From the NCBI GenBank assembly GCA_028355015.1, contig JAOMRN010000003.1, forward strand, positions 48,142-112,141: a DNA stretch of 64,000 nt, read 5' to 3'. This DNA comes from Methanobacteriota archaeon (lineage in GTDB: Archaea; Thermoplasmatota; Poseidoniia; Poseidoniales; Thalassarchaeaceae). Below, one piece after another: positions 52,993 through 63,793 of the stretch (within the stretch, counting starts at the first letter, position 1; each line of letters starts with the position of its first letter). The translations under genes were made by a program, and so were the position numbers. The notes under the pieces are model-generated. The model had not been told where the DNA came from and ran no database searches. It was given only the letters and a program-made list of their open reading frames with translations.

Positions 52993-53547
52993 TTATGATT
53001 TGAAAGGCATAGCGCATTTAGGGCATCTACTAGGCATAGTTACTCTTTTCCTCTCCCATGTATATCCACAGTCTCCGCATATCCACTGCCTTTCAGGTAA
53101 TTTCTCTAAGACTCTTTCTCGCATTTCTTGTAATACTGTCGAATCTGATAGTTTGGGCGGAGGTGCGATTTCCTTAGCTAAATCTGCATGTGTACTTCCA
53201 TGATCTAACAATCCAGATGCATGTAGTAACTCATGTACTAGTGTATGCTGATATAATTCTGAATCATTGTTTAATAATGGATTTAGACCAATTGTCACTG
53301 GCCCGCAAGAAACTCTAAGTTTTCTTCTACGAAAAAGCTCATTCGCGTTACATTCAAACCTAGTCATTCCTAATCTTGACTCATTTTTATCAATCCAGAT
53401 AAGTTGTAAGTTTTTTCCAAGATACTTCAAGAAAGGCGCTTCATTTTTTGTTAATTTAGACTTAAGTTCGTCTATTAATCCTTCAGGAAGCCATGGCTTT
53501 TCTGGTAGGTTGACTATTTTCTCTTCCTGCCCGCTGTCTCCAGTCAT
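52993..53547 (-). CDS. SprT-like zinc metalloprotease with C-terminal zinc ribbon
   Basis: HEXXH (LVHELLHASGLLDHG) plus CGDCG...CPKC. Confidence 0.55.
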   Translation of the reverse strand: MTGDSGQEEKIVNLPEKPWLPEGLIDELKSKLTKNEAPFLKYLGKNLQLIWIDKNESRLGMTRFECNANELFRRRKLRVSCGPVTIGLNPLLNNDSELYQHTLVHELLHASGLLDHGSTHADLAKEIAPPPKLSDSTVLQEMRERVLEKLPERQWICGDCGYTWERKRVTMPSRCPKCAMPFKS

Positions 53548-53859: not shown

Positions 53860-53897
53860 AATCAGTCTATATATGCTGCATAGACCCCATCAGATGA
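53860..53897 (+). promoter_or_regulatory. candidate archaeal TATA box (TCTATATATG, ~53864-53873) giving a leaderless transcript for oppA
   Basis: TATA sits ~24-27 nt upstream of the ATGs at 53894/53897. AT-rich 190-bp spacer upstream. Confidence 0.4.
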
Positions 53898-55924
53898 TGA
53901 AGCCTAGATTTAGTGCTCTATTTTTATGCACGCTGATGATTGCCTCGGTATTTGCCGGGTGTCTCGGTGGCGAAGACGATGTAGATGGTTGCATGGATGC
54001 AACCGCTAACAACTACAACGCTGACGCCACAGTAGACGACATGTCTTGTACCTATGACCCAACTATGACTTCCGTAATGGAATCATATGCGGCAGATACT
54101 ATGGCATATGATGACGCTTGGTCATCTCTGCAGAGCATACGTGCTTGTGCTGAGACAGGATCAAACAACCCATGCGAGATTGTTGAAATGACAATCGGTG
54201 ATGCATCTACGTTTGACCCTCATGATGCTTATGATTCAGCATCTGGTGACGTTATTGAGAATGTTTTCGATACCCTATACAGGTATGAAGGAGATGGCTC
54301 AGGAAATGCGATTATCGTACCACGTTTAGCTACTGGCCACACAATTAGTGATGACCAACTAACGTACACATTCACTCTACGTGATGATGTATACTTCAGT
54401 AATGGTGACCATATGACTGCTGAAGATGTTGTATATTCATGGGAAAGAGTGAATGAAATGGCAAGCCCACTTTCACACGTTTCTTGGATTACTGAACAAA
54501 ATTTTAACACGTCAGGTCTGACAATGATTGATGATACTCACTTTTCGGTAACTTTGATGCAACCATATGCTGGATTCATTTCTACAATCGCTTACACTGT
54601 TGGTGCTATTGTAAACAAAGACCTTTGTGAAGCCAATAGAATAGTTACTGCTGATGATCCTGCAACTGCTGATGTAGACGAGTCATCTGATGACTGGTGT
54701 CATGGATGGATGGACGAAGCACCTCTTGGTGCAGGTACCGGTGCTTACATTGTTGATTCATGGACTCGTGAGACTTCAATCGTTCTGACACCTAACTGGA
54801 TGTACTGGGAAGATGGTGGATTCAATATCAACCGTTTCACTTCACAAATAGTTACTGAAGCTTCAACTCGTCTTCTTGCTTTCCAAGATGGTGAGGCTGA
54901 TTTCGGTTCATTAAACATCGAGGATGAGCCAGAGTTCTGTGATAATTATGAAGATGGACCTAATGTAGTAGGTAAGGAAGGATTCGTTTGTACATACAGA
55001 GAATCTTTCACAATTACTCTATCTGCAATGAATGTTATGCCAAAGGCTCTAGATGCTGGTGAAGAAAGCAACAACACTGATGCTAACTCGTCTCTAGTTC
55101 TAAATCATGACTGTGATATGGATGGTACAATGGATTGTAACGTAATGTCACAATCTGCAGTTCGTAAGGCCATTGCATATGCTTTCGATTATGATACAGC
55201 ACGCCGTGATACATACAGCGGACAATTAGCTCCAGTATACGGCCCAATTCCTAATGGTTTCTTGTATGATGAGACTCAATCACAGGTATTCAGCTACGAT
55301 CTAACCATTGCTGAGCAAACTCTTGAAGATGCAGGATTCATCAAGCAATATGACTGTTCAAGTCTAACTGTTGCAGGTGCACCAACTGTAGTTGCTGAGG
55401 GAGATAGAGATGGTGACGAATGTCGCCTACCAAACATTCTGAGAATCATGGCTAACGAAGGTAACGATTACCGTATTGCTATGGCTGGTCAAATTGCACA
55501 GTCATTAGGTTCAATCGGTGTTGCAACTGATGGTGATGCAAAGCCTTGGGCTGAGTATCTAACAATGTACTACACTAGTACATTCGAGATCAGATTCAGT
55601 GGATGGGCTCCAGATTATCTGGACCCAGATAACTACTGGACTCCATTCGCTGCAAGTCACGATGCTGGCGGAGACGCATATGGTACAAATTACCACAATG
55701 CGGCTCTAGATGAGAATCTAACAGCAGCTCGTGTTTCAACAGACGATGCAGAGCGTACACAACTGTACAGTAATGCATTCGCTCTTTGGACGGAAGACCC
55801 GAACATGATAATCATCGGCCAAGGTAATGGTATTAGCGTAAAGCGTACTGATATTGTATCCGCTCCATGGGCAGCTATAGGCTCTGCTCACTGGTTTGAC
55901 TACGATAAGTTACCAGTAGCTTGA
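53894..55924 (+). CDS. oppA: ABC peptide/nickel-type substrate-binding lipoprotein (family-5 SBP, OppA/DppA-like)
   Basis: Signal + lipobox (VFAGC), two-Cys motif GCMDATANNYNADATVDDMSCTY, then the family-5 SBP body. The track start 53873 is probably too far upstream. Confidence 0.8.
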   Translation: MMKPRFSALFLCTLMIASVFAGCLGGEDDVDGCMDATANNYNADATVDDMSCTYDPTMTSVMESYAADTMAYDDAWSSLQSIRACAETGSNNPCEIVEMTIGDASTFDPHDAYDSASGDVIENVFDTLYRYEGDGSGNAIIVPRLATGHTISDDQLTYTFTLRDDVYFSNGDHMTAEDVVYSWERVNEMASPLSHVSWITEQNFNTSGLTMIDDTHFSVTLMQPYAGFISTIAYTVGAIVNKDLCEANRIVTADDPATADVDESSDDWCHGWMDEAPLGAGTGAYIVDSWTRETSIVLTPNWMYWEDGGFNINRFTSQIVTEASTRLLAFQDGEADFGSLNIEDEPEFCDNYEDGPNVVGKEGFVCTYRESFTITLSAMNVMPKALDAGEESNNTDANSSLVLNHDCDMDGTMDCNVMSQSAVRKAIAYAFDYDTARRDTYSGQLAPVYGPIPNGFLYDETQSQVFSYDLTIAEQTLEDAGFIKQYDCSSLTVAGAPTVVAEGDRDGDECRLPNILRIMANEGNDYRIAMAGQIAQSLGSIGVATDGDAKPWAEYLTMYYTSTFEIRFSGWAPDYLDPDNYWTPFAASHDAGGDAYGTNYHNAALDENLTAARVSTDDAERTQLYSNAFALWTEDPNMIIIGQGNGISVKRTDIVSAPWAAIGSAHWFDYDKLPVA

Positions 55925-56001: not shown

Positions 56002-56082
56002 GATTCTCTAAATGATTATTTTGAGAATTATAAATTGGTTTTTTAAACCAATATTTCAACCTAATTTAGGTGGGATTTGTCT

Positions 56083-57219
56083 ATGAAGCTACAAGAATTT
56101 ATTGTCAGAAGATTAATCCTCTTAATCCCTGTAATCATGGGAGTTTCAATATTCACATTCGCTATAGCCCAGATTATACCTGCCGACCCTGCAGCCGCCT
56201 TATGTGGTGAAAAATGTGGAGTAGTTGGCTCCAATGGACTAACTGCCTACGAATCTAATGTCATAAGATTGGGTCTTGATAAACCAGTATGGCAGCAATA
56301 TGTCATATATGTTACAAATCTTCTTGAGGGTGACTGGGGTGAATCAGTTACATTCCATCGTCCAGTAATTGAGAAGCTCAGAGATGCTGCTCCTATCACT
56401 CTTGAGATGTCTTTTTTATCTCTAGCAATGGGATTTCCCATGGGCATCACTTTAGGAATTTTTAGCGCAGTATGGCAAGACAAACTATTCGACCAGGCAT
56501 CCAGATTTGTTGCGATTGCATTTGTTAGTTTACCCATATTTTGGTTAGCCATGATGTTCCAATATATTCTCGGAACTCAAGTTGGTATATGCGATCCAAT
56601 AACTCAGGCTTTACCTTTGGTTCCTGATACTGAAGGTGGTTGTTTTCCTATATACGGGAGACATGATCCTACCTATACATTCCCAGATACAGGGACTGGG
56701 TTCCACTTAATCGATAGTTGGATTGTAGATGAGCCAACGAAATTCAATCCTCAGACAAATCGTTACGAAGTTTCAATGTCTCACATGGATATGTTTATGG
56801 ATACTTTAAAGCATCTATTCTTACCCTGTTTCACACTAGCAGTGGCGAGTACTGGAGGACTTCTAAGATATATGAGAGCCAGCCTTTTAGAGGTGATGAA
56901 TGAAGATTATGTTAGAACCGCTCGAGCTAAAGGAATTTCTGAAACTAGAGTCATTCTAGTCCATGCTGTACGTAATGCTTTGGTGCCAATAGTTACGATT
57001 CTAGGATTCTCTATAGGGGGTGCCATAGGAGGCGCTGTTCTTACAGAAACCATATTTGCATTCCCAGGTATGGGTAAAACAGCTGTCGATGCTATTGTTT
57101 ACTTAGATTTTTCAATGATAATGGGGGTTACTTTAGTTACGGCTATAATTTTCCTCCTCTCTAATTTACTTGTAGATATTTCATACGCTATAGTCGATCC
57201 AAGGGTGCGATTAGAATGA
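56083..57219 (+). CDS. oppB: oligopeptide/dipeptide ABC permease OppB/DppB-like
   Basis: MKLQEFIVRRLILLIPV start, EAA-loop region RTARAKGISE. ~60-aa insert relative to short homologs. Confidence 0.8.
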   Translation: MKLQEFIVRRLILLIPVIMGVSIFTFAIAQIIPADPAAALCGEKCGVVGSNGLTAYESNVIRLGLDKPVWQQYVIYVTNLLEGDWGESVTFHRPVIEKLRDAAPITLEMSFLSLAMGFPMGITLGIFSAVWQDKLFDQASRFVAIAFVSLPIFWLAMMFQYILGTQVGICDPITQALPLVPDTEGGCFPIYGRHDPTYTFPDTGTGFHLIDSWIVDEPTKFNPQTNRYEVSMSHMDMFMDTLKHLFLPCFTLAVASTGGLLRYMRASLLEVMNEDYVRTARAKGISETRVILVHAVRNALVPIVTILGFSIGGAIGGAVLTETIFAFPGMGKTAVDAIVYLDFSMIMGVTLVTAIIFLLSNLLVDISYAIVDPRVRLE

Positions 57220-59126
57220 GTGATTTCACCACTGATTTCATTTTGTATAGCATATATTTATTTTTCTTAATTTTTACTATTGGGATTATTTTTGATAAAA
57301 TAAGAGGTAAAAAGTGGGCAGAAAGCCTTGAAGATCGTGAGGAGGGATTCACACGATTCATCCAAGGCTGGAAACAAAGATTTTATGACTTAAAAAAAAG
57401 TTGGAAGATTTTTAGGAAATCAATACTTGCTATAATCGGTTTAACTCTTATAGTTACAGTTTCAACTATCAGTATTTTTGCAGATGATATTGCAGTCGAA
57501 CATCCTTACAGGAATTTGCAAGATACAGAAGATCTTTGGTGGATTGATAACGAACCAAGAAGAGAAGCTCCATTCTCGGAGGCATGCGATTGGCATGAGC
57601 AAGGGATTGATTTATTTGGAATAAAAACTAAAGGGTATTCTCGTTATGTACCTGCTGTTTCAGATCCAGTGATTGATGAAAACGGATCTCTTACACCAAT
57701 ACCCCTAGAAATTATTGAGATTGAATTTATCGAAGATGATTTAGGTTATGATTTGAATAATTCTTTGATAATAGTCTATAATGAAACCACATTTTTTGTG
57801 ACGGACGAAGCGTTAAACATTACTAGTTCAAAAATATGGGTCACTTATGAATTTCAGAATAATGACATGCATCATTGGTGGTTACCTGATGGTTATGATG
57901 TATGTATTATGGGTACCACAAATACCGGGCAAGATTTGTTTAGTAAGATATTATATGGTTCCCGTATTTCACTAAAAATAGGTATTACCGTTGCGTTCTT
58001 AACTGTTGCATTGGGTACAATTGTTGGAAGCATAAGTGGGTATTATGGCGGAGTTATTGACGAAGTAATCATGCGAATTACTGATGTATTCTTTGCAGTG
58101 CCTGGCTTGATTTTAGCAATGGCTTTTGTCGCCGCATTACAGAATACTACAAGCCTAACAATCGCGATGTCCACCGCAGCATTTTTATTGTTATTTTTTA
58201 ATATTCTTTCTACAAGAAACGTAATTTCTGAATTAATTACAGGAGAAGGAACCGATCGAAATTTAATGTTTAAAATAAAAAATAAATTGGCGTCACAGTC
58301 TGATTTAGAAAATAAAGTTTTTAATTTCAAAAACTCAATACTTGAAATCGCGTTATTTTTATTGCGCTTCAGAGGAGTTTTATTAGTAGGTTTAACATTA
58401 ATTTTCTTAGGGAGTTTTTGGCCAGAATTATGGTCAAATAATACTGACGTGAAGTTAGTTAAATCATTAACTTTAGTTGCGATTTTCACCCTATATGTGG
58501 TAATAACAATCTTGGATAAAACATTAAATGAAGGTGTACCTAGTAAATTGATTTCAAAGAGAATCTCTGAATCATTTGATTTTGGGAATCCTTATCGATT
58601 CTTAGCATTAAGGACGATTCTGATATTCATTTCAGTCGTTTTGTTAATTTTTGTAACTAAATCCAGTGATTCCGATTTTATTCTGATTAAGGACTTTGAT
58701 AGATTATGGAAAATTCAGGCTGCATTAATATTAACTGGTTGGCCTGGTTATGCAAGACTGATCCGAGGTCAAGTCTTGTACATCAGAGAGATGACGTTTG
58801 TAGAGGCAGCAAAATCTGTGGGAGCCCCTGATGGAAGAATAATGTTCAGGCATATATTACCGAGTGCTTGGGCCCCGTTGTTGGTTGCTTTTACACTTGA
58901 TGTAGGTGGTACAATATTATCTGCATCTGGTTTATCTTTCATAGGCCTCGGTGCTGAACCGGGGACTGCAGAATGGGGTATTCTGGTTTCTGATGGCCGT
59001 AGATTTTTCCCCAATTCCTGGTGGTTAGTGACATTCCCTGGTTTGGCGATTTTACTCACAACTCTTGGTTTCAATTTGCTCGGAGATGGATTAAGAGATA
59101 TAGTAGATCCGAAAAATAAGAGGTGA
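57216..59126 (+). CDS. oppC: Oligopeptide ABC permease OppC/DppC-like (636 aa). Long N-terminal extracytoplasmic extension and a ~190-aa TM-rich insertion
   Basis: Canonical blocks (GTTNTGQDLFSKILYGSRISL; GWPGYARLIRGQVLYIREMTFVEAAKSVGAPDGRIMFRHILP) are separated by residues ~310-500 of extra sequence. Confidence 0.75.
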   Translation: MSDFTTDFILYSIYLFFLIFTIGIIFDKIRGKKWAESLEDREEGFTRFIQGWKQRFYDLKKSWKIFRKSILAIIGLTLIVTVSTISIFADDIAVEHPYRNLQDTEDLWWIDNEPRREAPFSEACDWHEQGIDLFGIKTKGYSRYVPAVSDPVIDENGSLTPIPLEIIEIEFIEDDLGYDLNNSLIIVYNETTFFVTDEALNITSSKIWVTYEFQNNDMHHWWLPDGYDVCIMGTTNTGQDLFSKILYGSRISLKIGITVAFLTVALGTIVGSISGYYGGVIDEVIMRITDVFFAVPGLILAMAFVAALQNTTSLTIAMSTAAFLLLFFNILSTRNVISELITGEGTDRNLMFKIKNKLASQSDLENKVFNFKNSILEIALFLLRFRGVLLVGLTLIFLGSFWPELWSNNTDVKLVKSLTLVAIFTLYVVITILDKTLNEGVPSKLISKRISESFDFGNPYRFLALRTILIFISVVLLIFVTKSSDSDFILIKDFDRLWKIQAALILTGWPGYARLIRGQVLYIREMTFVEAAKSVGAPDGRIMFRHILPSAWAPLLVAFTLDVGGTILSASGLSFIGLGAEPGTAEWGILVSDGRRFFPNSWWLVTFPGLAILLTTLGFNLLGDGLRDIVDPKNKR

Positions 59127-59130
59127 TTTT

Positions 59131-61086
59131 GTGTCTGAAAATTCGTTATTAAAAATTCAAAATCTCAAAGTCCATTTCGACACACTTGAAGGCCCAGTTG
59201 AGGCTTTACATGATGTAAATCTTGAAGTTAAAAAGGGTCAAATAATGGGTGTCGTAGGGGAATCAGGATGTGGTAAGTCGGTTACCTCATTGACCAGTAT
59301 TGGATTAGCCACTTGTATCGTTGATGAAGGAAGTATCAAGTATGATGGTAAGGAAATGATTTTTCATGAAAGTGATAAAAATAATTCTCTTGTATTTCTT
59401 AGTAACATATTACCCTACATCGCAGTTTTAATTTTCTTCCCTGTAGGTTTTGTTTATCTAATGCCTTTTATGAATGATCCACTACTAGGTTTCCAAATCA
59501 TAATGTTAGGCTTTGGATTGATTATTATTTCTCTTATTATCAAATATTTTATTTACTCCGATTTAAGAGAACATGAGAAATTTATGAGATTTATTAGAGG
59601 TAATGAAATAAGTATGATTTTCCAAGAGCCAATGACTGCGTTAAACCCCCTATACACAGTTGAAAAGCAGATTTATGAGGTTATGAAGACCCATAACCGT
59701 TTAGTAGACTCTAGATTATCTCAATATGATAGAATTTTTTCTTCATTAAAGTCCCCATTTAGATTTATGTATAATTGGATTTTATCTGATCGTTTTTCAT
59801 CAATATTTTTCTTAATTCTTCTATTAACTTATCTTATAACTTCATGTATGGGACCAAACCTAATTTCTTCATGGGGGACTCGCTTTGCCGTAATATTCTA
59901 CGCTTCTGCCGAGGTATCAATATCATGCACTAATTATACGGATGAATTAATTTCTTATTGCTTTTTATTGATTCCTTTTGGTATACTAAGAGCCTCAATA
60001 AAATCCTCGATGGATAGAAAAGAAGACTTCAGAAAGATGTTGGTGTCAATTCCATATGTATCTGTCATATTATTATTGATTCTATGGTATGATAGTAGTC
60101 TTTTTTTGGGTGATTTATGGCATGAAGAATTAGAAATTTCTGACAACAATTGGGTCCATTCGGCGTTTATGATTGCTTTCTATTTCCCTATCATTTCATC
60201 ACTCTTTGTTGATTTCTCTAGGCTTGAAGAAGTTCATAGATTTTTGATAATTAGATCAATACCTTTTACATTTACTCTAGCACTAACTTATGCAATACTT
60301 CTGTGGACTCCTAATCAGGTCGTTGGAACCATCGTTGCTTTGGTGATGGTAATATCGATACCAGGTATGATATTGATTGATTACTTACAACTTGACCCTG
60401 CTCATAGAGGACAAGTAGTAAAGATTCTTGAAGATGTCCAGATACCTAATCCTGGGGCGGTTATTACAATGTATCCTCATGAGTTATCTGGAGGGATGCG
60501 TCAAAGAGTTATGATTGCTATGATGATGTCCTGTGAGCCCAAATTACTGATTGCAGATGAACCAACTACTGCACTTGATGTCACGATACAGGCTCAAATT
60601 CTTCACTTAATGCGTGATCTTCGAGATAGAAAGGGCACTTCGATAATGCTGATTACTCATGACCTTGGAGTTATAGCTGAATTATGCGACTCAGTATCAG
60701 TGATGTATGCGGGATCAGTTGTTGAGACAGGAACTATTGAAGACATACTTGCAAATCCAAGGATGCCATATACAATCGGACTTCTACATAGTATACCCAA
60801 GATTGTACACTCGGATGAACGCGAGGGGCGCACAAGTCTCCCGATAATTCCTGGTCAAGTTCCAGATCCAAATACTCACTTTGACGGTTGCCGTTTCCAT
60901 CCAAGATGTCCATTTGCAGACGATCTCTGTCGCTCAATTAGGCCAGAAATGATTGAAGTTAGCGAAGGGCATTATGCTGCTTGCCATCATACTGATTTAA
61001 CTATCATTTCTGAAGATGTAGAGTCTTCTTTTGATATATTTTCTAAGGAATTCGAAGGCGTGGGAGGTGAGGTAATTGTCAGATAG
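59131..61086 (+). CDS. oppD: Oligopeptide ABC ATP-binding protein OppD-like (651 aa). Two hydrophobic insertions inside the NBD
   Basis: GTG start. Walker A GESGCGKS ... ISMIFQEPMTALNP ... YPHELSGGMRQRVMIA ... Walker B LLIADEPTTALD, plus the oligopeptide C-terminal domain. ~72-aa and ~230-aa hydrophobic inserts. Confidence 0.8.
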   Translation: MSENSLLKIQNLKVHFDTLEGPVEALHDVNLEVKKGQIMGVVGESGCGKSVTSLTSIGLATCIVDEGSIKYDGKEMIFHESDKNNSLVFLSNILPYIAVLIFFPVGFVYLMPFMNDPLLGFQIIMLGFGLIIISLIIKYFIYSDLREHEKFMRFIRGNEISMIFQEPMTALNPLYTVEKQIYEVMKTHNRLVDSRLSQYDRIFSSLKSPFRFMYNWILSDRFSSIFFLILLLTYLITSCMGPNLISSWGTRFAVIFYASAEVSISCTNYTDELISYCFLLIPFGILRASIKSSMDRKEDFRKMLVSIPYVSVILLLILWYDSSLFLGDLWHEELEISDNNWVHSAFMIAFYFPIISSLFVDFSRLEEVHRFLIIRSIPFTFTLALTYAILLWTPNQVVGTIVALVMVISIPGMILIDYLQLDPAHRGQVVKILEDVQIPNPGAVITMYPHELSGGMRQRVMIAMMMSCEPKLLIADEPTTALDVTIQAQILHLMRDLRDRKGTSIMLITHDLGVIAELCDSVSVMYAGSVVETGTIEDILANPRMPYTIGLLHSIPKIVHSDEREGRTSLPIIPGQVPDPNTHFDGCRFHPRCPFADDLCRSIRPEMIEVSEGHYAACHHTDLTIISEDVESSFDIFSKEFEGVGGEVIVR

Positions 61087-62137
61087 GGAAACTTTAATCG
61101 AACTAAATGAAGTCAAAAAATGGTTTCCTATCAAGTCTGGTTTATTATCTCCTGTGAAGAATTTTGTCCATGCAGTTGATGGAGTAAGTCTTGTTGTAGA
61201 TAAAGGAGAAACATTGGGTATTGTTGGAGAGTCTGGTTGCGGAAAAACTACACTTGGTAGACTTATTTTAAGCCTCATACCAATTACATCAGGCTCAATA
61301 ATTTATGATGGTGTTGAATTAAGAAAAATGAAAAATAAAGATATCAGGAGAAAAATGCAGATAGTTTTCCAAGATCCCGGCGGTTCAATGAATCCCCGTA
61401 TGACCGTCAGATCAATAATTTCAGAACCTTTGATCGTCAATGGTTATTCTGATGGTGCTGAAATGACTAAAAAAGTAGGTGATTTATTAGAATCCGTTGG
61501 TTTGAAGAGGAATCATATGACTAGATTCCCTCATGAATTCTCAGGTGGTCAAAAACAGAGAGTTGCTTTAGCTAGGGCTCTAGCACTTGAACCAGATTTC
61601 ATCCTTCTAGATGAACCAACTAGCGCATTAGATGTTTCAGTTCAGGCCCAAGTGCTAAATTTATTAGATGAGATCCAGAGAGAAAGAGGTCTAACATTTG
61701 TTTTCATAACCCATTCTTTGAATGTAGTACATCATATTTCAGATAGAGTTGCAGTCATGTATCTTGGAAAGATAGTCGAACTAGCAGAAACTGATAATTT
61801 ATTTGAAAGCCCTGCTCACCCCTATACTCATGCTCTTCTTTCGGCTATCCCTGAACCAACAGTTGGTCAAGATAGAAATGAAAGGATAGTTCTAAGCGGA
61901 GATGTTCCGAGTCCTGCAGATCCGCCTTCAGGATGTCGTTTCCATACAAGGTGCCCAATAGCCAAGATCGGCGTTTGTGATGTAGATGAACCAGAATTAG
62001 TGAATATTAATTCGGGACATAAAGTAGCATGTCATTTCCCCTTGGCTCCCGGTGAAAAATTACCTTTGATTAACAATGGCATCCCATATGGTATTCACCC
62101 CCAGTCTTCAACTAACGCCTCTGATCAAGAGTCCTAA
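61076..62137 (+). CDS. oppF: oligopeptide ABC ATP-binding protein OppF-like (canonical size)
   Basis: GESGCGKTT, FSGGQKQRVALARAL, ILLDEPTSALD, C-terminal CRFHTRCP. TTG start. Confidence 0.85.
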   Translation: MSDRETLIELNEVKKWFPIKSGLLSPVKNFVHAVDGVSLVVDKGETLGIVGESGCGKTTLGRLILSLIPITSGSIIYDGVELRKMKNKDIRRKMQIVFQDPGGSMNPRMTVRSIISEPLIVNGYSDGAEMTKKVGDLLESVGLKRNHMTRFPHEFSGGQKQRVALARALALEPDFILLDEPTSALDVSVQAQVLNLLDEIQRERGLTFVFITHSLNVVHHISDRVAVMYLGKIVELAETDNLFESPAHPYTHALLSAIPEPTVGQDRNERIVLSGDVPSPADPPSGCRFHTRCPIAKIGVCDVDEPELVNINSGHKVACHFPLAPGEKLPLINNGIPYGIHPQSSTNASDQES

Positions 62138-62782: not shown

Positions 62783-63793
62783 ATGGCAGATAAAGCAAAA
62801 TTAGAGTACATATGGCTAGACGGATATAATCCTACACAGAATATGAGGAGTAAAACAATGGTGAGAAATAATTTTTCGGGCAAACTTGAAGATTGCCCTA
62901 TTTGGAATTTCGATGGTAGTTCTACCAAGCAAGCAGAAGGTGGTTCGTCAGACTGTTTATTGAAGCCGGTTGCAATATTTCCAGATCCAATGAGAGATAA
63001 TGGATATCTGGTTATGACTGAGGTCTTGAATCCCGATTCTACACCACATGTATCTAATGGTAGGGCAACAATCGATGATAATGATAATGATTTTTGGTTC
63101 GGCTTTGAACAAGAATATTTCATTATGGATGTGGAAACTCAACTACCGTTAGGCTTCCCATTAGGTGGATACCCTGGGCCTCAGGGTCTCTATTATTGCT
63201 CAGTTGGGGGTAAAAATACACATGGCCGAGCATTTGTAGAAGAGCATGCTGATTTATGTATTGCAGCAGGTATAAATTTCGAAGGAATCAATCAAGAAGT
63301 TGCATGTGGGCAGTGGGAATTCCAATTATTTGCTAAAGGAGCTAAAGCAGCTGGAGATGAATTATGGGTTGCTCGATATCTTTTAGATAGACTAACGGAA
63401 AATTATGGATATTATATTGAATATCATCCTAAACCAATAAAGGGCGATTGGAATGGATCGGGTATGCATGCTAATTTTTCAGATGCGAAATTACGTGATA
63501 GTGGAGACGAAGCAGTATTCCATAAAGTATGCAAAGCATTTGGCGAAAATATCAAGAGGCATATGGATGTTTACGGTGCTCATAATGAATTACGTCTTAC
63601 TGGGCTTCATGAAACACAATCTATTGATCAATTCTCTTACGGAGTTTCAGATAGAGGGGCTTCAATCAGAATCCCTATTACAACAGTAGAAGATGGCTGG
63701 AAAGGGCGCCTTGAAGACAGACGCCCTGCATCTAATGGGGACCCTTACAAGATTGCCTCAGCCATAGTTAAAACTACAAAATCTACGTATTGA
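62783..63793 (+). CDS. glnA: glutamine synthetase, type II (eukaryote-like GSII)
   Basis: EYIWLDG...MRSKT, FGFEQEYF, YYCSVGG, CGQWEFQ, LWVARYLL, PKPIKGDWNGSGMHANFS. These match GSII signatures, not GSI. Confidence 0.8.
   Translation: MADKAKLEYIWLDGYNPTQNMRSKTMVRNNFSGKLEDCPIWNFDGSSTKQAEGGSSDCLLKPVAIFPDPMRDNGYLVMTEVLNPDSTPHVSNGRATIDDNDNDFWFGFEQEYFIMDVETQLPLGFPLGGYPGPQGLYYCSVGGKNTHGRAFVEEHADLCIAAGINFEGINQEVACGQWEFQLFAKGAKAAGDELWVARYLLDRLTENYGYYIEYHPKPIKGDWNGSGMHANFSDAKLRDSGDEAVFHKVCKAFGENIKRHMDVYGAHNELRLTGLHETQSIDQFSYGVSDRGASIRIPITTVEDGWKGRLEDRRPASNGDPYKIASAIVKTTKSTY

Follow-up and report, generated by a model that had tools for sequence, protein, structure and literature searches.

We analyzed a 64,000-nucleotide stretch of DNA from an archaeon of the Thalassarchaeaceae (the window, whose positions serve as coordinates here) that carries an operon for an oligopeptide ATP-binding cassette (ABC) importer, with all of the operon's genes on the forward (+) strand. 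The operon has the same make-up as structurally solved systems: an SBP_bac_5 binding protein, B- and C-type permeases, and D- and F-type ATPases with oligo_HPY/four-cysteine domains. oppA (53873-55924) encodes a 683-residue substrate-binding protein (Pfam SBP_bac_5, PF00496; E=4e-61); oppB (56077-57219) a 380-residue B-type permease matching Pfam PF00528 and PF19300 and aligned to 8z1v_A; oppC (57216-59126), whose start codon overlaps the oppB stop (ATGA), a 636-residue C-type permease; oppD (59131-61086) a 651-residue D-type ATPase; and oppF (61076-62137) a 353-residue F-type ATPase, both ATPases matching Pfam ABC_tran and oligo_HPY. OppF is canonical and without inserts. The Pfam matches of OppC and OppD are each broken into separate stretches, and OppC has about 11 predicted transmembrane (TM) helices rather than six. 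The region studied here, within oppC, encodes a genuine lineage-specific insertion of four predicted TM helices in the TM3-TM4 loop, and we consider it moderately likely that these form a peripheral accessory module on a canonical importer.

The OppC insert and its predicted helices

OppC aligns with Escherichia coli DppC (8z1v_B) in three collinear blocks (E=2.9e-55), with aa 59-103 corresponding to DppC 19-63, aa 222-309 to DppC 71-158, and aa 502-635 to DppC 166-299. Between the second and third blocks lie 192 residues (aa 310-501; 58143-58718, +) where E. coli DppC has seven, placing the insert in the TM3-TM4 loop on the extracellular side; this loop is periplasmic in the solved E. coli DppC structure (PMC12136057). 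The initial annotation had described a TM-rich insertion of about 190 aa at 58143-58715 (aa 310-500), and the alignment bears out both the insertion and the conserved blocks it had quoted on either side. When we surveyed the loop in the wider family, using the 150 best cluster representatives from a library of 1.8 billion proteins, 97 of the 119 measurable representatives had a loop of 6-8 residues; because this short loop is the usual state, the OppC insert is a true anomaly and no alignment accident.

Outside the insert OppC is recognizably a C-type permease. The BPD_transp_1 profile (PF00528) scores 97.1 bits against a cut-off of 26.4, its match divided in two by the insert; the OppC_N domain (PF12911) scores 19.6 bits, below its cut-off of 23.9, and the corresponding segment aligns to DppC 19-63. 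The core downstream of the insert (58719-59123, +; DppC 166-299) comprises TM4, the EAA coupling loop (VEAAKSVG...HILP), TM5 and TM6, and has a ratio of nonsynonymous to synonymous substitution rates (dN/dS) of 0.002. The coupling loop itself, between TM4 and TM5, reads FVEAAKSVGAPDGRIMFRHILP (aa 528-549) and lines up with the coupling region of DppC, with most columns invariant. OppC departs from the six-TM topology in having about 11 predicted helices, six canonical, four in the insert and one at the N-terminus, and is an architectural variant of the OppC/DppC subfamily and no separate family. The NCBIfam equivalog models (DppC, OppC, NikC and others) gave at best 236 bits against cut-offs of 300-484; since none was reached, the substrate class cannot be assigned from those models.

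Helices were located as peaks of Kyte-Doolittle (KD) hydropathy over 19 residues. The insert contains four such hydrophobic 19-mers (aa 313-331, 380-398, 414-432 and 462-480; KD means 1.96-2.83), at the places where the initial annotation had named four additional helices. I1 (aa 313-333; 58152-58214, +; KD 1.96; AlphaFold2 [AF2] helix 318-342) is predicted to run from outside to inside, I2 (aa 374-401; 58335-58418, +; KD 2.17; AF2 helices 369-405) from inside to outside, I3 (aa 411-438; 58446-58529, +; KD 2.21; AF2 helix 413-439) from outside to inside, and I4 (aa 462-486; 58599-58673, +; KD 2.83; AF2 helix 459-481) from inside to outside. The distribution of charge agrees with this arrangement: across the family, each of the two predicted outer turns averages 0.1 Lys+Arg (K+R) and the two predicted cytoplasmic loops average 3.2 and 3.6, which fits an out-in-out-in-out path with TM4 onward unchanged. 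An AF2 model built from a 48-sequence alignment places helices across the insert with a predicted local distance difference test (pLDDT) score of about 68-85, and small strands at its base (aa 314-317 and 487-491). A disordered, non-membrane insert is thus contradicted by the hydrophobic 19-mers, their even count, the positive-inside charges and the modeled helices; and because the count is even, TM4, the coupling loop, TM5 and TM6 downstream all keep their usual topology.

The insert is a family trait. All 120 of the best homologues carry 155-240 added residues at the site, at identities down to 51%, and those that are named are all annotated as Poseidoniales or Marine Group II (MGII). Most of 48 aligned representatives show four hydrophobic peaks in the insert, and one clade has five or six. 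Across 60 genome loci whose GC ranges over 36-59%, the hydrophobic fraction of the insert stays at about 0.5, with 3-5 helices throughout, so its hydrophobicity is no artifact of AT bias. Its Lys+Asn content, on the other hand, drops from 0.13 to 0.04 with rising GC over the same loci. In the window's lineage the insert has a GC of 0.30 against 0.385 (about 38%) for the locus, and here the loops are indeed Lys/Asn-rich, as the initial annotation had noted; this richness is an AT-bias effect that fades in GC-rich orthologues and no property of the insert as such.

Sequence conservation within the insert is low apart from its flanks and a single strongly conserved motif, N-P-x-R-x-L-x-L-R-T (aa 458-467; 58587-58616, +), which is predicted to lie on the cytoplasmic side, in the I3-I4 turn and at the start of I4. 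P459, R466 and T467 of this motif are invariant, and N458 and L463 are shared by 90% or more of the sequences; W402 and D434, elsewhere in the insert, vary hardly or not at all. Conservation of a motif on the cytoplasmic side points to one or more specific contacts with some partner. The flanks are short conserved strand-like stretches, TSLT... and ...EIVVIKDFDRLWK (...IKDFDRLWKIQ), and shorter versions of them are present in relatives without the insert.

We found no homologue of the insert outside the OppC family, by an insert-only profile search that returned five matches, all OppC fragments, and whose word prefilter missed most family members, so that the negative is weak. A Pfam scan of the isolated inserts and the ectodomain gave no match above noise (no hit at E<=1). 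No intein or homing-endonuclease signature was detected by Pfam at that threshold, and the insert is present in all orthologues, not sporadic. An internal duplication, or copying of one module, was considered as an origin and rejected: HHalign gave the OppC insert a probability of <=0.2% against TM2-3 and against TM4-6 of the same protein.

Two inserts in the D-type ATPase

OppD is a D-type ATPase (3e-74 to DppD versus 2e-44 to DppF) that aligns with the D-type ATPases of Mycobacterium tuberculosis and E. coli in three blocks, leaving two inserts. Insert 1 (aa 78-151; 59362-59583, +) separates the beta subdomain from the Q-loop strand and is predicted to form a 2-TM hairpin; all 42 orthologues have two hydrophobic segments there, and its hairpin loop has a K+R of 0.0 against 5.9 in the flank. 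Insert 2 (aa 194-423; 59710-60399, +) has six hydrophobic helices here, as in the window's subclade generally, and four in most orthologues (31/42), the number being even in 35 of the 42. The hairpin turns have a K+R of 0.0 against 5.6-5.9 in the flanks on the side of the nucleotide-binding domain (NBD), the pattern expected of helices that exit and re-enter the cytoplasm. With eight hydrophobic 19-mers within its two inserts OppD does not behave as a soluble cytoplasmic domain, in contrast to the solved D-type ATPases, which are soluble proteins of 327-336 aa without hydrophobic inserts. A membrane-threaded OppD is arguably a greater oddity than the OppC insert.

Despite these inserts the catalytic sequence of OppD is intact. 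GESGCGKS (Walker A), FQEP (Q-loop), LSGGMRQR, LLIADEPTTALD (Walker B) and ITHDLG (H-loop) are invariant among the 42 orthologues, as are C587, C593, C600 and C618 (60889-60984) of its oligo_HPY domain (PF08352; 66 bits); the C-terminus of OppF (about 61900-62000) likewise retains four oligo_HPY cysteines. E. coli DppD and DppF bind [4Fe-4S] clusters at C-terminal cysteine sites (PMC12136057), to which the four-cysteine pattern of OppD and OppF appears to correspond.

The initial annotation had assigned membrane-helix inserts to OppC and OppD and none to OppB and OppF, and this division holds: OppF has zero hydrophobic segments and OppB, by the same count, canonical helices only, its approximately 33 added loop residues being non-TM.

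Origin and role of the extra helices

The OppC importer family is found in both Poseidoniales families with its translocation core, EAA loop and all ATPase motifs intact, from which we infer that the complex is still a canonical type I binding-protein-dependent peptide importer. Attached to this core, the four insert helices would form a peripheral, lipid-facing accessory bundle, while 6-8 TM helices would be threaded in the OppD fold, emerging beside the helix in contact with the coupling helix of OppB. The extra OppC and OppD helices may together act as a membrane scaffold or anchor, giving the translocator a larger lipid-embedded periphery; the OppD helices would permanently tether the D-type ATPase to the membrane, leaving the transport mechanism unaltered. 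Once gained, such inserts would be topologically locked in, as loss of one helix would invert everything downstream, and this lock-in would explain why hydrophobic pattern and parity are kept despite poor sequence conservation.

Several points weigh against an accessory module of this kind. The helices were called from hydropathy peaks and not by a dedicated TM predictor. The AF2 model of OppC has a mean pLDDT of 65 and superposes poorly on DppC (Foldseek TM-score 0.13-0.32; root-mean-square deviation ~20 A), and because of this poor superposition it was used for secondary structure only, with no conclusion on packing; the OppD model is poor (mean pLDDT 49), although insert 1 is modeled as a helical hairpin. 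Analysis of helical conservation moments for a packing face gave p values of 0.04-0.86. Synonymous divergence from the orthologue used for rate estimates is near saturation (dS ~1-1.5), making the dN/dS values approximate. The scaffold idea names no partner for the NPxRxLxLRT motif, which hints at a specific one, and a functionless passenger would account just as well for the fast rates and the varying length.

Comparison with relatives suggests how the inserts may have grown. OppC and OppD both have their closest relatives in a sister MGII Opp operon (L069-L073; e.g., L072 3643-6744 and 6594-8030) found in the same metagenome-assembled genomes (MAGs). Its OppC has only about 22 added residues in the TM3-TM4 loop and no TM helix there; the extra helices of this paralogue are N-terminal, and its ectodomain is very large. 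The paralogue OppC open reading frames (ORFs) are 767-1034 aa long, with Asp-rich giant ectodomains containing DDDNDGD-type repeats. At site 2 the paralogue OppD carries a homologous 2-TM hairpin, which aligns to the final two helices of insert 2; the site-1 hairpin is missing. In other lineages an archaeal OppC (P0338, L078) carries a 2-TM hairpin at the identical loop with similar strand-like flanks, two helices versus four, and its partner OppD has a K/E-rich coiled coil as site-2 insert; a bacterial OppC (P0324, L080) also has a 2-TM hairpin at the identical loop, and its partner OppD has no insert. These states are consistent with stepwise growth by hairpins, in which the OppC loop would have passed from 7 aa through a 22-aa hairpin and a 2-TM to a 4-TM form, and OppD site 2 from 2 to 4 to 6 TM.

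Both sites take up other sequence in other lineages. Archaeal OppDs with 100-110-aa soluble inserts (K/E-rich coiled coil) at site 2 (L078 7164-8441 and L074 6661-7992) indicate that the helical-subdomain loop is a general insertion hot spot. The NCBIfam profiles for Mollicutes OppD (NF043079) and OppF (NF043078) are 561 and 649 positions long, and their signature/Walker B halves begin at about 345 and 487; to go by these lengths, the Mollicutes ATPases, too, appear to have large inserts at this site. A literature search on Mollicutes OppD/F inserts returned nothing relevant.

Such permissiveness raises the possibility, in our view a doubtful one, that the insert is a functionless passenger: hydrophobic hairpins gained in permissive loops and kept because their removal would invert topology or cause misfolding, a constructive neutral ratchet. 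We computed dN/dS against an 88%-identical orthologue (L081), synonymous sites being saturated against L003 and L004. The OppC insert has a dN/dS of about 0.10 versus 0.002-0.01 in the core, with a dN roughly 15-50 times higher, and OppD insert 2 reaches 0.25-0.35; these fast rates, the variation in length (155-240 aa) and helix number, the lack of any domain or outside homologue in our searches, the use of the same loops elsewhere (for 2-TM, coiled-coil and other insertions, and in the long Mollicutes OppD/OppF profiles), and the conservation of hydrophobicity and parity in place of sequence are all as a passenger would predict. The same ratio, however, lies far below 1, and the OppC insert is under selection though evolving faster than the core. 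It is moreover kept in every orthologue of both Poseidoniales families, NPxRxLxLRT, W402 and D434 are invariant or nearly so within it, and three separate insertions have gathered in one transporter, none of which sits easily with a passenger.

The initial annotation had seen in the OppC and OppD inserts a matching pair, a co-evolved accessory membrane module rebuilding one half of the transporter. From the operons of 77 genome loci we took the length of the OppC loop and, for both ATPases, the Walker A, Q-loop and LSGG spacings. In the roughly 50 complete Poseidoniales loci the OppC insert always occurs alongside both OppD inserts, the sole exception (L022) being a regular-expression mis-call, and both Poseidoniaceae and Thalassarchaeaceae are represented among the insert-bearing loci. 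In these loci the motif-to-motif distance across OppC TM3-TM4 is 184-255 aa, compared with about 29 aa in E. coli DppC with its 6-8-residue loop; OppD has 114-120 residues from Walker A to Q-loop (canonically ~50) and 194-293 from Q-loop to LSGG (canonically ~60); and OppF has 45 and 59, respectively, in every locus. This perfect co-occurrence beside a canonical OppF would suit a single co-evolved unit with its helices packed together, as would the membrane-like character and consistent topology of both insert sets, the location of their cytoplasmic ends near the membrane-NBD interface, the cytoplasmic placement of the sole conserved OppC insert motif, and the presence in the paralogue of extra (N-terminal) OppC helices together with an OppD hairpin.

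We nevertheless judge a single unit of this kind unlikely. The loci represent a single lineage and a single evolutionary origin, so co-occurrence is no independent sign of co-evolution. Beyond that lineage the two inserts come apart: the paralogue has an OppD hairpin without an OppC loop insert, and extra OppC helices elsewhere stand beside normal or non-TM OppDs, those OppCs with extra C-terminal or TM1-TM2 helices having ATPases of normal size (325-336 aa). The OppC homologues P0268 (L082 259-1683) and P0371 (L083 1425-2837) are extended beyond the usual C-terminus by about 120 aa with 3-4 hydrophobic helices, and in L082 the extended OppC is paired with normal-size ATPases. Even within the Poseidoniales, expansions in helix number occurred in different subclades, those of OppC in L005 and L029 and that of OppD in the window's subclade. 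The inserts match in composition and not in homology, as HHalign comparison of the OppC insert with OppD inserts 1 and 2 gave probabilities of <=0.2%. Judged from these sequences, the association of the OppC and OppD inserts is real within one family, but neither obligatory nor general.

Subunit pairing also argues against a single rebuilt half. In solved E. coli DppBCDF, DppB pairs with DppD and DppC with DppF, with a K243-E114 salt bridge at the B-D contact (PMC12136057). OppB K285 occupies the DppB K243 position, inside an identical RTARAKG string, and OppD E183, invariant among orthologues, the DppD E114 position; by homology, then, OppD would be docked beneath OppB, and OppC would lie above OppF. 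B-D pairing with conserved K285 and E183 places OppC and OppD in opposite pseudo-symmetric halves, contrary to the proposal that their inserts rebuild one half. OppD insert 2 starts ten residues past E183, where the top of the ATPase faces the membrane, which makes membrane insertion geometrically plausible, but beside OppB. What survives of the co-evolved module is therefore its membrane-like character and its co-occurrence; single origin, non-homologous inserts and separate expansions speak against the rest.

We think it improbable that the operon represents a new class of type I importer, in which a polytopic OppD and about 13 extra helices (4-5 of them from OppC) would form a second membrane domain beside the 12-helix translocator with a role of its own; such roles could include ATPase-bilayer coupling, gating of lateral access, or partner docking via NPxRxLxLRT. 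Finally, that there is no real membrane segment at all, only an annotation or assembly artifact, an intein or mobile intervening sequence, or a low-complexity expansion driven by AT bias, has in its favor the low GC and Lys/Asn-rich loops of the insert, and is largely refuted, and hence extremely improbable, given a reading frame unbroken in more than 60 independent assemblies, the absence of intein or other Pfam domains from our scan, a dN/dS below 1, hydrophobic helices still there at 59% GC, and a charge pattern that obeys the positive-inside rule.

Two points bear on ABC transporters more widely: the TM3-TM4 loop, which adjoins the outer gate, can take a four-helix membrane module, and an NBD apparently tolerates TM hairpins in its fold beside the coupling interface. 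Were the extra helices functional, they would constitute a new way to build or regulate a type I importer; were they neutral, they would offer a clean natural case, in a membrane complex, of constructive evolution held in place by topological lock-in. Poseidoniales rank among the most abundant archaea of the plankton, and the architecture of this transporter bears on the acquisition of organic nitrogen and carbon by a major marine heterotroph.

The solved C subunits offer a clear baseline. E. coli DppBCDF (8z1v-8z1z) and OppC (8z21), and M. tuberculosis OppC (8j5q) and DppC (8wd9), share with the Poseidoniales protein the six-helix core, EAA loop and C-terminal motifs; they differ in having a 7-residue TM3-TM4 loop where it has 192 residues with four predicted TM helices, and it also has, unlike them, an ectodomain of about 118 aa and an added N-terminal helix. 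MalF-like permeases share the principle of a six-helix type I core enlarged by TM helices and a large outer-loop domain with the mechanism unchanged. The MalF additions lie elsewhere, as extra N-terminal helices and the P2 loop. That ABC uptake permeases such as MalF gain helices is established (Zheng et al., 2013; PMC3654945), and the OppC insert extends this known tendency; the present architecture is apparently undescribed. In the searchable literature we found no peptide-family C subunit with four helices within its TM3-TM4 loop and none whose ATPase bears helices as well; nor did we find TM hairpins in a nucleotide-binding domain, or these MGII inserts, described there. The oligopeptide transporter is the peptide-uptake system reported for most Poseidoniales genomes, papers on MGII genomics noting it only as present (PMC6336850).

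Other features of the operon and its surroundings

OppC has two further additions, both upstream of the TM3-TM4 loop. An N-terminal extension (aa 1-58; 57216-57389, +) with a hydrophobic helix at aa 4-31 (KD 2.52) is confined to the window's subclade, most orthologues beginning to align at aa 28-34; the canonical TM1 (aa 59-92) follows it. In the TM1-TM2 outer loop, an insertion of about 118 aa (aa 104-221; 57525-57878, +) that is unaligned to DppC forms a well conserved ectodomain (dN/dS 0.04), beta-rich, with AF2 strands at a pLDDT of about 80. The cysteines C124 and C230 of OppC are invariant. The 230-aa N-terminal ectodomain initially annotated thus shrinks to this ~118-aa domain, the remainder including the 58-aa extension and canonical TM1. 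OppA has one hydrophobic segment, at its N-terminus (aa 13-31), ending in ...FAGC with a lipobox-like cysteine; this signal (53873-53970) suggests that the binding protein is lipid-anchored.

The oppC gene is 99% identical to one on a contig (L001) from the single-cell genome of an uncultured Poseidoniales (Marine Group II) archaeon. Two further contigs, L002 (99%) and L008 (53% identical to OppC), come from MAGs labeled Bacteroidota and Acidiferrobacteraceae; they are short and probably mis-binned. Upstream of the operon, on the opposite strand, an ORF of 184 aa (52993-53547, -) has a HELLH zinc-metalloprotease-like motif and a C-terminal CxxC...CxxC ribbon. Downstream of oppF lies a short (336 aa) glutamine-synthetase-like gene (62783-63793, +); a Gln-synt_N/C neighbor also follows the operon in L081, so this synteny is conserved.

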